Assembly (NCBI GenBank): GCA_028868545.1
Contig: JAGWUF010000001.1
Span: 26,204 to 90,203, forward strand
Length of the DNA: 64,000 nt
DNA from: Lysobacteraceae bacterium
GTDB taxonomy: Bacteria; Pseudomonadota; Gammaproteobacteria; Xanthomonadales; Xanthomonadaceae
Direction: 5' to 3'
A program made the translations under genes and the position numbers. Under the pieces are notes generated by a model. The model was not told the origin of the DNA and searched no databases. It worked only from the letters and a program-made list of their open reading frames with translations. Shown here piece by piece: positions 2,328 through 38,459 of the stretch (the first letter of the stretch is position 1; the number at the start of each line of letters is the position of its first letter).

Positions 2328-3031
2328 TGAACGAACAGCACAATCACATCGTCAAAAGCCACGACGAAGAACAGACTGCCCTGCGCGACAGCCTGATCCG
2401 CATGGGGCAGCTGGCGGCCAGCCAGCTGGATGCAGCGCTGGATGCGGTGGCCCGCCGCGACGAGGCGGCCGCGCGCCGGATCATCGCCGCCGACGATGCC
2501 ATCGATCAGCTGGAGCAGCAGATCAACCACGACGTGATCCGCCTGATCCAGCGCGGCCCGCTGGCCAGCGACCTGCGCGTCATCCTCGCCGGCTTGCGCG
2601 TGGCCTCGGACATCGAACGCGTCGGCGATTATGCGGCGAACATCGCCAAGCGCTCGCTGGTGCTGAACCAGTCGCCGCCGCTGGCACAGACCCGCGGACT
2701 GAATGCGCTCGGCCGGTTGGCGGCGCAGCAGTTGCGCGATGTCCTGCAGGCCTATCTGCAGCGCGACGGCGAGGCCGCCCAACACGTGCGGGAGCGCGAT
2801 GCCGAGCTGGACACGCTCTACACCGGCATGTTCCGCGAACTTTTGACTTACATGATGGAAGACCCGCGCGCCATCACTGTCTGCACCCACCTGCTGTTCA
2901 TGGCCAAGAACCTGGAGCGCATCGGCGACCACGCCACCAATATCGCGGAAAACCTGTGGTTCCTGCTGCATGGCGATGCCCCCCTGCCGCCGCGCGACAA
3001 ACGCGACGACAGTTCGGCCGCTTCCAGCTGA
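2327..3031 (+). CDS. phoU: Phosphate signalling regulator PhoU
   Basis: Two PhoU repeats (DIERVGDYAANIA; NLERIGDHATNIAE); ATG overlaps the pstB TGA. Confidence 0.95.
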   Translation: MNEQHNHIVKSHDEEQTALRDSLIRMGQLAASQLDAALDAVARRDEAAARRIIAADDAIDQLEQQINHDVIRLIQRGPLASDLRVILAGLRVASDIERVGDYAANIAKRSLVLNQSPPLAQTRGLNALGRLAAQQLRDVLQAYLQRDGEAAQHVRERDAELDTLYTGMFRELLTYMMEDPRAITVCTHLLFMAKNLERIGDHATNIAENLWFLLHGDAPLPPRDKRDDSSAASS

Positions 3032-3037
3032 ATGCAG

Positions 3038-3091
3038 AACCCGCCGGGAATCGCGTCGCATCCGTTGGCGGGTTAGGATGGGCTTTCATCC
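3038..3091 (+). other. Two adjacent inverted repeats between phoU and the RiPP precursor gene
   Basis: AACCCGCC (3038-3045) pairs with GGCGGGTT (3067-3074); GGATG (3076-3080) pairs with CATCC (3087-3091). No U-tract follows. Confidence 0.5.
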
Positions 3092-3109
3092 CGACCCGCG
3101 AGGCAACCC

Positions 3110-3547
3110 ATGGCACAGCCCAACAAACCCTCTCTTCCGCTGATGCTGGCCGGTGCGGCCGTGGCGGCGGGTGCACTGTTCTCGATGCAGGCAATGGCGC
3201 ACGGCTATCTGCAGGACAGCGGCCAGGCCAAGCCCACCGCCAGCGAAGGCAAGTGCGGCGAAGGCAAATGCGGGGCGGGAATGAAGCAAGGCAAGGCACC
3301 GGCGAAGAACGCCAATGCCCCGGCTGCGCATCACGCATTCGGTGACCTCGACACCGACAAGGACGGCCGCATCTCGCGCAGCGAATTCGCCGCCGCGCAC
3401 GGCGGCAAGGACACCATGTTCCCGAAGATCGACAGCAATGGCGACGGCTTCATCAGCAAGGAAGAATTCGATGCCCACCATGCCGCCATGGGCAAGGCCA
3501 TGAGCGAAGGCAAATGCGGCGAGGGCAAGTGCGGCGGCAAGATGTAA
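3110..3547 (+). CDS. Secreted HvfA-like RiPP precursor (four EGKCG motifs) containing two EF-hand loops
   Basis: Signal peptide ending AMA; SEGKCGEGKCG near both ends; EF-hand loops DTDKDGRISRSE and DSNGDGFISKEE; directly upstream of DUF692 and DUF2063 genes. Confidence 0.85.
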   Translation: MAQPNKPSLPLMLAGAAVAAGALFSMQAMAHGYLQDSGQAKPTASEGKCGEGKCGAGMKQGKAPAKNANAPAAHHAFGDLDTDKDGRISRSEFAAAHGGKDTMFPKIDSNGDGFISKEEFDAHHAAMGKAMSEGKCGEGKCGGKM

Positions 3548-3553
3548 GCCGGC

Positions 3554-4378
3554 ATGGTTGAACCGCTGCCCCAGCGCAGCGCGGGCTTGGGCCTGCGCCG
3601 TGCGCTGCTGGATGAATTGATCGGGGCGCCTGCGGGCGCCTTCGATTTTCTGGAATGCGCGCCGGACAACTGGATCGGCGTCGGTGGCGCGCTCGGCGAG
3701 CAGCTGGAAACGCTGACGGCGCGGTATCCGCTCAGCTGCCACGGCCTGTCGCTGTCGCTGGGCGGCCCCGACCCGCTGGATCAGGCGTTCCTGCGCCAGA
3801 CCCGCGACTTCCTCGACCGCCACCGCTGCGCGCTCTACAGCGAACACCTGAGCTACTGTTCCGCCAACGGCCATCTCTACGACCTGCTGCCGCTGCCGTT
3901 CACCGACGAAGCGGTGACGCACGTCGCCGCACGCATCCGCCAGGTGCAGGACGCGCTGGGCCGCCGGATCGCGGTGGAAAACGTCAGCTACTACGCCGCG
4001 CCCTACCAGCAACTGTCCGAAATCGATTTCGTCGCTGCGGTGCTGGCCGAAGCCGGCTGCGACCTGCTGCTGGACGTGAACAACGTCTACGTCAACGCGA
4101 TCAACCACGGCTACGACGCGCGCGCCTTCATCAAGGCGATGCCGACGCAGCGCATCGCCAGCTACCACGTTGCCGGCCACTTCGACGAAGCCGACGACCT
4201 CAAGATCGACACCCACGGCACGGCGGTGAAGGACGACGTGTGGTCGCTGCTCGGCTACGCCTACGCCAGCCACGGCGTGCGCCCCACCCTGCTGGAACGC
4301 GACTTCAACTTCCCGCCGCTGCCGGTGCTGCTGGACGAAGTGGCGCGCATCCGCGCGCTGCAGGCGGCAGCGCCATGA
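3554..4378 (+). CDS. DUF692-family multinuclear non-heme iron oxidase (MNIO, HvfB/BufB-like)
   Basis: GLGLRR start, [57 protein letters not shown] and LLERD are all characteristic of DUF692. Confidence 0.93.
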
Positions 4379-5124
4379 GCGCGCTGCACGATCAGCTGCA
4401 CGCGCTGGCCGCGCACGTGCGCGACCCGGTCGCGCACGCCGGCCCGCCCGGCATCGAGGATCGGCGGCTGGCGGTCTATCGCGAGCTGGTGGCCAACAAC
4501 CTCGACGGCCTGCTGGCCGGCACCTTCCCGGTGATCCGCAGGACTCTGGGCGATGCCGACTGGCAGGCGCTGCTGCACCGCTTCCTCGTCGGCCACCGCA
4601 GCGAAACCCCGCTGTTCACCCGGCTGGGATTGGAGTTCATCGCCTTCCTCGAAGCCGCGGAAGAGCCCGCGCGGCCGTGGCTGACCGAGCTGGCGCATTA
4701 CGAATGGGCCGAGCTGGGCCTGCAGCTCAGCGATGCCGCGGCACCGCCGCACGTTCCCGACGGCGACCTGCTCGACGGCGTGCCGCTGCTGTCGCCGCTG
4801 GCCTGGCCGCTGGCCTACGTCTGGCCGGTGCACCGGCTCGGCCCGGACTGCCAGCCCGCCGAACCGCCGCCCGTTCCGACGCTGGTGCTGCTGCGCCGCG
4901 ATCCTGGCGGCCGCGTCCATTTCTCGCTGCTGTCGCCGCTGCTGTACCGGCTGCTGGCGCTGATTGGTGCCGACGACGGGCGCAGCGGCCACGCGCTGCT
5001 GCGCCAGCTGGCGGAGGAAGTCGGCCACCCGGATTTCGACGCGTTCCTCGGCGAAGCACTGCCGATGCTGGAACGGCTGCGCGCCGAGGGCGTGCTGCCG
5101 GGCACCGCGCCGCCGACGCGCTGA
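4375..5124 (+). CDS. DUF2063-family MNIO partner protein (HvfC/BufC-like)
   Basis: [13 protein letters not shown]...FPVIRRTLG and [10 protein letters not shown] motifs; ATGA overlap with the DUF692 stop. Confidence 0.88.
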
Positions 5125-5165
5125 AAGCGATGTGGGCCAGCAGGCCGCTCTGCTAGGCTTTGCCG

Positions 5166-5858
5166 ATGACCGATACGCAAGATGTACCCGCCTTCGCGGC
5201 GATGGCCGCGCGCTTCCGCGGCTACCTGCCGGTAGTGGTGGATGTGGAAACCGGCGGCTTCGACTGGAACAAGCACGCCCTGCTGGAAATCGCGGCGATT
5301 CCGCTTGAACTGGATGCGGCCGGCCACTACGTGCCGGGCGAAGTCGCGCACGCGCACATCGCCCCCGCGCCCGGCACCAGCATCGACCCGAAGTCGCTGG
5401 AGGTCACCGGCATCAAGATCGGCCATCCGCTGCGCGGCGAGGTGGACGAGCGCAGCGGGCTGGACGCGATCTTCGTGCCGGTGCGCGCGGCGCTGAAGAA
5501 GCACGGCTGCCAGCGCGCCATCCTGGTGGGCCACAACGCCCACTTCGACCTCAACTTCCTCAACGCCGCGGTCGCTCGCGTGCAGCACAAGCGCAACCCG
5601 TTCCACCCGTTCAGCGTGTTCGACACGGTGACGATGGCCGGCCTGGCCTACGGCCAGACCGTGCTGGCACGCGCGGCGATGGCTGCCGGGCTGGGCTGGG
5701 ACCCCAGCCAGGCGCACTCGGCGGTGTACGACACCGAACAGACCGCGAAGTTGTTCTGTGCGATCGCAAATGCATGGCATAGGCCAAATCCCGCAGCGCA
5801 GGGCGGTTCGTCCGCATCGAGCGCGGGGACAATCGGCGCCATGGATGGCGCCGATTAG
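5166..5858 (+). CDS. rnt: Ribonuclease T (DEDDh exoribonuclease) with an atypical C-terminal tail
   Basis: [37 protein letters not shown] and [12 protein letters not shown] motifs. About 25 extra residues follow the NAW terminus I would expect. Confidence 0.95.
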
Positions 5859-9577: not shown

Positions 9578-9662
<85 letters not shown>

Positions 9663-21497: not shown

Positions 21498-21554
21498 CCC
21501 ATGCACACTGCATTGCACTGGCCTCCTGCAACCGGCTGTGGTTCAATGCGCGCC

Positions 21555-21640
21555 ATGAAGCGGGGGTGCCTGGCGTTGCCGGGCTGAGAGAGTCCCTTGG
21601 AACCTGATCCGGTTTGCACCGGCGTAGGGAGCTTGATTCG
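21555..21640 (+). ncRNA. TPP (thi-box) riboswitch
   Basis: GGGGTGC...GCTGAGAG..CCCTTGGAACCTGATCCGGTTTGCACCGGCGTAGGGAG matches the canonical thi-box; AAGC/GCTT P1 stem. Confidence 0.95.
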
Positions 21641-21750
21641 AGCAGTCTGGCCATGCCTGTGCAGGGCCGTGCACATGCCATTGCGCATGTGGATGCCGTG
21701 GCATCGCCTGTTCGCCGTCGCTTCGTCCCCTTTCCCGACGATGGCTGACG

Positions 21751-29248: not shown

Positions 29249-29358
29249 GGTGGCCCCGTCGGCCCCTCGCGACGCTAGGTCGAAAACCCCGCCAGGGCCG
29301 GAAGGCAGCAACGGTATCGACTGACGCGGGTGCCGAGGCCAGCCGGCGGGGCCGCCAC
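29249..29358 (+). ncRNA. ffs: Signal recognition particle RNA (4.5S)
   Basis: Terminal stem GGTGGCCCCGTCGG/CCGGCGGGGCCGCC enclosing the helix-8 motif GCCAGGGCCGGAAGGCAGCAACGGT (GGAA tetraloop, CAG/AGCA loops). Confidence 0.9.
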
Positions 29359-31703: not shown

Positions 31704-31794
<91 letters not shown>

Positions 31795-38382: not shown

Positions 38383-38459
38383 TGGCGGAGTGGACGGGAC
38401 TCGAACCCGCGACCTCCGGCGTGACAGGCCAGCATTCTAACCGACTGAACTACCACTCC
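38383..38459 (-). tRNA. tRNA-Asp (GTC)
   Basis: Minus strand reads GGAGTGGTAGTTCAGTCGGTTAGAATGCTGGCCTGTCACGCCGGAGGTCGCGGGTTCGAGTCCCGTCCACTCCGCCA. Confidence 0.97.

Follow-up and report, generated by a model that had tools for sequence, protein, structure and literature searches.

Here, we describe a three-gene cassette in the genome of a Thermomonas-like Lysobacteraceae bacterium, located in a 64,000-nucleotide stretch of contig JAGWUF010000001.1 (positions 26,204 to 90,203; hereafter the window, numbered from its first letter). As regards chemistry and architecture, we consider it likely that this locus is an hvfABC-type operon ('oxazolin' or EGKCG captophorin) for a ribosomally synthesised and post-translationally modified peptide (RiPP), with a precursor of the EfhP family; our confidence in its physiology is lower. 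The undescribed twist of this locus is its layout, in which EGKCG doublets stand on both sides of a pair of EF-hands, an arrangement that we term the sandwich subtype. Open reading frame calls place three co-directional genes in the order A-B-C between phoU on the 5' side and rnt on the 3' side, with the hvfC ATG overlapping the hvfB stop codon (ATGA):

3110..3547, forward strand: precursor gene, HvfA-family, EfhP-like, sandwich subtype; 145 amino acids (aa)
[quoted passage not shown]
4375..5124, forward strand: hvfC, DUF2063 plus RiPP recognition element (RRE)-type partner (PME type 1); 249 aa; PF09836, 3.5e-23, and PF22106, 1.6e-26

An earlier, sequence-only reading of the window had marked out positions 3110-5124, and every coordinate and feature that it gave was found at exactly the position named. 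Its assignment of the region to an HvfABC-type MNIO RiPP cassette is borne out by models specific to this system, with scores far beyond those expected by chance. HvfB scored 427.9 bits against the HvfB equivalog NF003818 (cut-off 360), HvfC scored 268.1 bits against the HvfC equivalog NF050145 (cut-off 142), and two stretches of the precursor matched the NCBIfam HvfA-family domain model KCGExKCG_twice (NF050137), whose cut-off of 19.5 bits it passed with 36.1. The Pfam families matched are MbnB_TglH_ChrH/DUF692 (PF05114) in hvfB and DUF2063 (PF09836) together with NGO1945_C (PF22106) in hvfC. The solved structure closest to the window HvfB is that of a DUF692 protein from Histophilus somni (3BWW, 5.1e-72), with which its LDVNN and DTHG motifs align, and its ligand motifs are present (H63, H98, E142, D174, N176/N177, H205, D219, H221 and E248). 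These include the Asn, Asp and His of iron site 3 (N176, D219 and H221), a site at which N175, D242 and H244 are essential in Haemophilus influenzae HvfB (bioRxiv 10.64898/2026.07.17.739211). The genome carries a single MNIO and a single EGKCG protein. Two other identities were rejected. For a bufferin, the BufB model NF050167 gave 280.1, below its cut-off of 310, and the precursor had no DUF2282 or BufA2 match; for methanobactin, the MbnB model TIGR04159 gave 50.6 against a cut-off of 325, and the partner is a DUF2063 protein, not MbnC.

The precursor combines the elements of a predicted exported MNIO substrate with a putative calcium-binding domain:

3110..3199, forward strand: predicted Sec signal peptide, from sequence inspection, with K6 and a hydrophobic stretch L9-A22
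3242..3274, forward strand: N-terminal SEGKCGEGKCG doublet (Cys49, Cys54), predicted HvfBC substrate; NF050137 stretch aa 38-56
3326..3508, forward strand: EF-hand pair domain, about aa 73-133; Pfam EF-hand families
3350-3385, forward strand: EF loop 1, DTDKDGRISRSE, aa 81-92, canonical
3431-3466, forward strand: EF loop 2, DSNGDGFISKEE, aa 108-119, canonical
3503..3535, forward strand: C-terminal SEGKCGEGKCG doublet (Cys136, Cys141), immediately C-terminal to the last EF helix

The four EGKCG motifs lie at aa 46-50, 51-55, 133-137 and 138-142 and contain Cys49, Cys54, Cys136 and Cys141; the two 33-nucleotide blocks that encode SEGKCGEGKCG differ at 4 positions, all of them synonymous. Both EF loops are canonical at positions 1, 3, 5, 6, 8 and 12, with a 27-residue loop spacing, and Pfam EF-hand_5 matched the precursor in two stretches (1.7e-13). 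The His/Met patches pointed out in the sequence-only reading are AHHA at aa 73-76 and AHHAAMG at aa 122-128. Near the N-terminus, inspection of the sequence gives candidate AxA cleavage sites after A22 (between AGA and L) or A30 (between AMA and H), and an HvfA-family leader motif, F24-S-M-x-A-M-A-H-G-Y33, starts within the signal-peptide region. A FxMxxLxxGY leader motif is also found in HvfA-like proteins that have no EF-hands (L116 and L120), so that the precursor can be read as HvfA-like at its start (leader plus doublet), with an EF pair placed between this start and a second doublet. Across 111 aligned homologues, conservation reaches at least 90% at leader residues F24, M26, A30, G32 and Y33, and likewise at residues 133-142, which form the C-terminal EGKCGEGKCG. 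The loop residues D81, D83, D85, D108, D112, G113 and E119 are invariant in this alignment. In the sandwich subtype H97 is invariant too, and conservation of H123/H124 reaches at least 90%, whereas the EfhP-type consensus is without them.

The sandwich layout is common among relatives of this protein. Cys motifs flank the EF pair on both sides in 118 of the 120 closest database homologues listed, and the loci that were fetched comprise 72 with the sandwich layout, 30 with Cys motifs on the N-terminal side only (N-only) and 3 on the C-terminal side only (C-only). In a search seeded with a Pseudomonas homologue of EfhP, 119 of the 120 matches listed were N-only, the remaining one being without a scorable EF pair; in these 119 and in the 30 N-only loci, the protein ends in a Cys-free ..ANGKxxPxxLF.. 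C-terminus. The window protein differs from this type in having a second doublet after the EF pair, the conserved H97 and DAHHA, and no ANGKxxPxxLF tail. The consensus cores differ accordingly: ..AAH..(EF2)..DAHHAxM.. followed by EGKCGEGKCG in the sandwich subtype, and ..DASFARTD..(EF2)..QFDANGKPFP.., with no Cys after EF-hand 2, in the EfhP type. In a tree of 79 HvfB sequences, which has a midpoint root only and carries no claim on the ancestral subtype, 12 of the 13 maturases that go with N-only precursors group in a single clade (support 93/92), placed among those that go with sandwich precursors. By its sequence, the window protein falls into the sandwich subtype, which is large and, with its EF pair flanked by EGKCG doublets, differs from the EfhP subtype. 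The class to which it belongs was catalogued in 2025, where EfhP was named for a possible role in Ca2+ (PMC12452194); the journal and preprint text searched does not mention a C-terminal EGKCG block. Many homologues are already annotated publicly as "HvfA family ... RiPP metallophore".

A studied relative within the class is EfhP (PA4107) of Pseudomonas aeruginosa, whose gene is in an operon with a DUF692 gene (PA4106) and a DUF2063 gene (PA4105) (PMC4053335). EfhP has two EF-hands and a Kd for Ca2+ of 13.7 uM, and its predicted location is the periplasm (PMC9132961); it has four EGKCG repeats, for which its authors speculate on iron sensing (PMC11559002). EfhP and its homologues in Pseudomonas, Stenotrophomonas and Pantoea share with the window protein a signal peptide, EGKCGEGKCG doublets, a leader motif of the form (P)LxQGY, two canonical EF-hands with a 27-residue loop spacing, and DUF692 and DUF2063 genes downstream. 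The N-only layout of EfhP itself is taken from its relatives and from its published loop positions (88-99 and 115-126), and our comparison uses other Pseudomonas species. The sequence-only reading had known of no characterised EF-hand-containing MNIO product; EfhP, a characterised two-EF-hand Ca2+ binder with a DUF692/DUF2063 operon, corrects this statement. That reading had also named an already characterised protein of the same architecture as what would speak against its proposal. EfhP largely answers to that description, although the repeats of its relatives are all N-terminal.

The chemistry expected of the locus comes from two other systems. HvfABCX of nontypeable H. influenzae, which makes oxazolin, and FonABC, which makes fontiphorin, resemble the window cassette in having HvfB and HvfC and a precursor with a signal peptide and AEGKCGEGKCG-type doublets. 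HvfA differs from the window precursor in its length of 95 aa, its three consecutive doublets and its lack of a folded domain. Originally assigned as oxazolone/thioamide, the HvfB product has been reassigned to 5-thiooxazole by two groups (PMC12668002; bioRxiv 10.64898/2026.07.17.739211), and the oxazolone-thioamide chemistry put forward in the sequence-only reading is outdated. Every EGKCG Cys tested in HvfA and FonA becomes 5-thiooxazole, and the minimal substrate of the related FonBC is two EGKCG repeats (PMC12668002). For oxazolin, the data are consistent with roughly one Cu(I) for every two modifications (PMC11252979). By analogy with oxazolin and fontiphorin, the product expected at the window locus would be a 5-thiooxazole that absorbs at about 302-305 nm and binds Cu(I) with high affinity. 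Modification at a distance from the leader is usual in this family, whose precursors have up to 506 residues and up to 58 Cys (PMC12452194). Bufferins (BufA1/BufA2 with BufBC) likewise combine an MNIO and a DUF2063 partner with a Sec-exported, Cys-containing precursor, and their thiooxazole modification and role in copper protection may, by analogy, be common to the window system; the window system differs from them in an enzyme that scores below the BufB cut-off and in a precursor without a DUF2282 or BufA2 signature.

Based on these relatives, we propose a sequence of events for the window cassette. By homology to HvfABC and FonABC, HvfC would dock the leader in the cytoplasm, where the diiron HvfB would oxidise Cys49, Cys54, Cys136 and Cys141 to 5-thiooxazoles, at a change of -4 Da per Cys, and the modified precursor would then be exported by Sec. 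We suggest that sub-micromolar cytoplasmic Ca2+ keeps the EF domain loosely folded until it reaches the periplasm; such a domain could be both modified and exported. In the periplasm the EF pair would bind two Ca2+ with micromolar affinity, as EfhP leads us to expect, and each doublet would offer two N,S heterocycles to one Cu(I), so that the protein would carry two Cu(I) sites attached to a core loaded with Ca2+. Analogy makes periplasmic copper buffering the most likely physiological role, possibly coupled to Ca2+ status.

Several points weigh against this interpretation. The involvement of copper in the window system is by analogy only, and the modifications demonstrated so far are not on EF-hand-bearing members of the family. 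Against the HvfA equivalog model NF050188 the precursor scores 25.7, short of the cut-off of 95, and is therefore a member of the HvfA family and not an HvfA orthologue. Cleavage of the signal peptide of the window precursor is a prediction from sequence only, and the equivalent segment of EfhP was termed a transmembrane helix in earlier papers. Finally, the hvf operon includes the DoxX-like gene hvfX, but no DoxX/HvfX gene was found with PF07681 in the window's genome, which is 96% complete. HvfX-type DoxX genes have been reported 'in various combinations' (PMC12452194), and a DoxX-like gene is a frequent accessory and not a defining feature of HvfABC-type clusters.

Conservation is uneven between the two doublets. 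All 190 sandwich-scored proteins, and the 3 C-only members too, carry a Cys motif at the C-terminal side, and no Cys element of the sandwich subtype is as conserved as the C-terminal doublet, whereas the N arm has from 0 to 6 Cys and places from 5 to 49 residues before loop 1. Three proteins (L018, L027 and L092) lack the N-terminal Cys altogether, and hvfBC are still kept there. This pattern would suit a precursor in which only the C-terminal doublet, at least 90% conserved, is the physiologically relevant modified site, and in which the N-terminal doublet is dispensable and evolutionarily labile. We regard this as unlikely for the window protein. Its N-terminal doublet is a perfect EGKCGEGKCG, long enough for the minimal substrate and situated near the leader motif, and the 190 sandwich proteins were scored with Cys on both sides.

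A second alternative, raised in the sequence-only reading, is that the EF pair, in folding around Ca2+, could draw the N- and C-terminal doublets into one Ca2+-gated metal site. An AlphaFold2 model built on the alignment of 111 homologues speaks to both sides of this proposal. The EF pair (about aa 73-133) is predicted confidently, with a predicted local distance difference test score (pLDDT) of 92-95, and the two arms are not: pLDDT is below 50 for the N-terminal arm (aa 25-72, including the doublet) and near 50 for the C-terminal doublet. The model thus agrees with the folded EF-hand scaffold between two modifiable Cys doublets that the sequence-only reading had described, and a single predicted domain flanked by both doublets, with Cys on both sides in 118 of the 120 closest homologues listed, is what a joint site would call for. 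In EF-hand pairs, moreover, the start of helix 1 lies near the end of helix 4. However, the N-terminal doublet and its link to the EF core are predicted to be disordered, and the N arm varies in Cys content and length as noted above, down to the three members without N-terminal Cys. A variable and disordered N arm makes Ca2+-gated joining of the two ends less likely. A single doublet, in addition, suffices on its own as a substrate and, judging by oxazolin, probably forms a Cu(I) site (PMC12668002, PMC11252979). We consider a joint site improbable.

A related extension of the copper-binding RiPP interpretation is that the sandwich subtype is a two-metal device, in which Ca2+ occupancy, together with H97 and the H123-H124 cluster, tunes the capture or hand-off of Cu(I) by the two thiooxazole arms. 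H123-H124 adjoin the C-terminal doublet. This proposal is speculative and we give it little credence at present. If it were true, the protein would be a Lysobacteraceae periplasmic Ca2+/Cu cross-talk protein, mechanistically apart from both oxazolin and EfhP.

In favour of the proposed interpretation, the EF core matched, with Foldseek, the polcalcin Phl p 7 (template modelling score on the target 0.70) and calmodulin lobes. Lanmodulin was rejected, with a score of 21.1 against a cut-off of 135 for the LanM equivalog NF053806; lanmodulin loops have Pro at position 2, in contrast to the Thr or Ser of the window loops. Likenesses to XopAW and SPARC were generic EF-hand matches far below cut-offs.

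The distribution of the precursor bears on whether the cysteines are modified at all. All nine same-genus genomes sampled, and numerous genera across the family, gave full-length matches; among 400 genomes sampled from the whole class, just a few other families did. Named hosts are Thermomonas, Pseudoxanthomonas, Lysobacter, Luteimonas, Vulcaniibacterium, Dokdonella, Chiayiivirga, Thiogranum and a few Pseudomonas. Among 30 same-family loci, 28 have phoU directly upstream of the precursor and 28 have hvfB/hvfC downstream of it, a linkage also found in the named genera, and rnt is a conserved downstream neighbour in the named Lysobacteraceae loci. One genome of the same genus, G280, provides a natural control. 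It has an orthologous EF-hand gene beside rnt (L012:1459-1821, reverse strand) with no hvfBC there, and the encoded protein has no Cys, no EGKCG and a His-rich C-terminal tail. The only MNIO of G280 belongs to a BufA2/BufB/DUF2063/DoxX cluster elsewhere in the genome (L123:190-2704), so it looks like one copper-peptide system has been replaced by another. The pattern in G280 indicates that the Cys motifs are retained only together with HvfBC, and that the EF core persists alone.

This control argues against the view that the Cys remain unmodified and that the protein simply senses or buffers Ca2+ in the periplasm, with thiols that bind or respond to Fe, Cu or the redox state. In its favour, the EfhP authors suggest a double role in sensing Ca2+ and Fe by way of the EGKCG cysteines (PMC11559002), and the measurement of Ca2+ binding by EfhP made no mention of modification (PMC9132961). 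Against this, the motifs co-occur with hvfBC and vanish where hvfBC are lost, both enzymes score above their equivalog cut-offs with ligand motifs intact, and all EGKCG motifs tested in HvfA and FonA are modified (PMC12668002). An unmodified protein is in our view quite improbable. An oxazolone/thioamide modification as in methanobactin, first assigned to HvfA (PMC11252979) and still carried in NCBIfam names, is highly improbable, since two groups that include the original authors reassigned it using alkylation-assisted heteronuclear multiple bond correlation (PMC12668002; bioRxiv 10.64898/2026.07.17.739211) and the window enzyme falls far short of the MbnB equivalog (50.6 against 325).

Some further observations concern relatives with other gene arrangements. 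In the P. fluorescens group (L058-L074 and L112), there are many EfhP homologues with one doublet and no hvfB/hvfC within 3 kb. Pseudomonas sp. ANT_H12B has an EF-hand match (L114) and a separate mini-HvfA without EF-hands, consisting of a leader and one doublet (L122). These loci raise the question of maturation in trans. Contigs from Bacteroidota and from uncultured metagenome-assembled genomes (L104:2851-3795 and L115:2560-3261) encode larger proteins with KCGEGKCG and more than two EF-hand-like loops, the L104 protein having a lipoprotein-like N-terminus and an internal duplication; there is no HvfB match within 3 kb at either place. These may represent a different architecture, or a contig binned into the wrong genome.

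Upstream of the cassette, candidate expression signals lie in the spacer between phoU and the precursor gene; these and the two flanking genes, which are outside the system, are as follows:

2336..3031, forward strand: phoU, last gene of pstCAB-phoU; Pfam PhoU, 3.1e-46; upstream neighbour and conserved synteny anchor
3074..3079, forward strand: TAGGAT, a -10-like box and candidate cassette promoter, 30 nucleotides 5' of the ATG
3100-3103: GAGG Shine-Dalgarno sequence
5160..5858, forward strand: rnt (RNase T); Pfam RNase_T, 3e-18; downstream neighbour

The TAGGAT box is kept in nine of ten same-genus upstream regions, with TAGCAT in the remaining one, at about 30-40 nucleotides before the ATG in spacers that are otherwise divergent. 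This conservation suggests that the cassette has its own promoter; a strict sigma-70 scan found no promoter at the cassette. Most relatives in the set L005-L013 and L043 have a CTGGCC-like box 17-18 nucleotides 5' of TAGGAT, which the window does not. The conserved adjacency of phoU prompted us to consider a functional tie to phosphate uptake. We did not retain it, since the gene order is shared within Lysobacteraceae only, none being found at EfhP-type and non-Lysobacteraceae loci, and because the TAGGAT box suggests a separate promoter. No terminator could be assigned, and a regulatory RNA was rejected: the one terminator-like match lies inside hvfB and the count is within shuffle expectation, the phoU-precursor spacer folds no better than shuffles (z = -0.14), and Rfam has no match near the cassette. 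Elsewhere in the window, Rfam matched a thiamine pyrophosphate riboswitch (21552-21647, forward), a small signal recognition particle RNA (29256-29352, forward) and three tRNAs (9578-9659, forward; 31704-31791, forward; 38386-38459, reverse). The genes around the cassette are housekeeping genes: pstA and pstB upstream, phoU, rnt, a SpoU-family methyltransferase gene, and the genes for RNase R and tilS.

Given that the class has already been catalogued and annotated and that EfhP is a studied relative, the gain from this locus is incremental and the find largely expected; what is new, namely the sandwich layout, the His residues conserved in it and the G280 control, is modest. If modification of the precursor were demonstrated, it would mean that HvfBC-type enzymes decorate both ends of a folded functional protein and not only short repeat peptides, and it would suggest a copper-binding function for EfhP. 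For such comparisons, the Lysobacteraceae subtype offers non-pathogenic hosts and, in G280, a natural variant that is free of both Cys and maturase.

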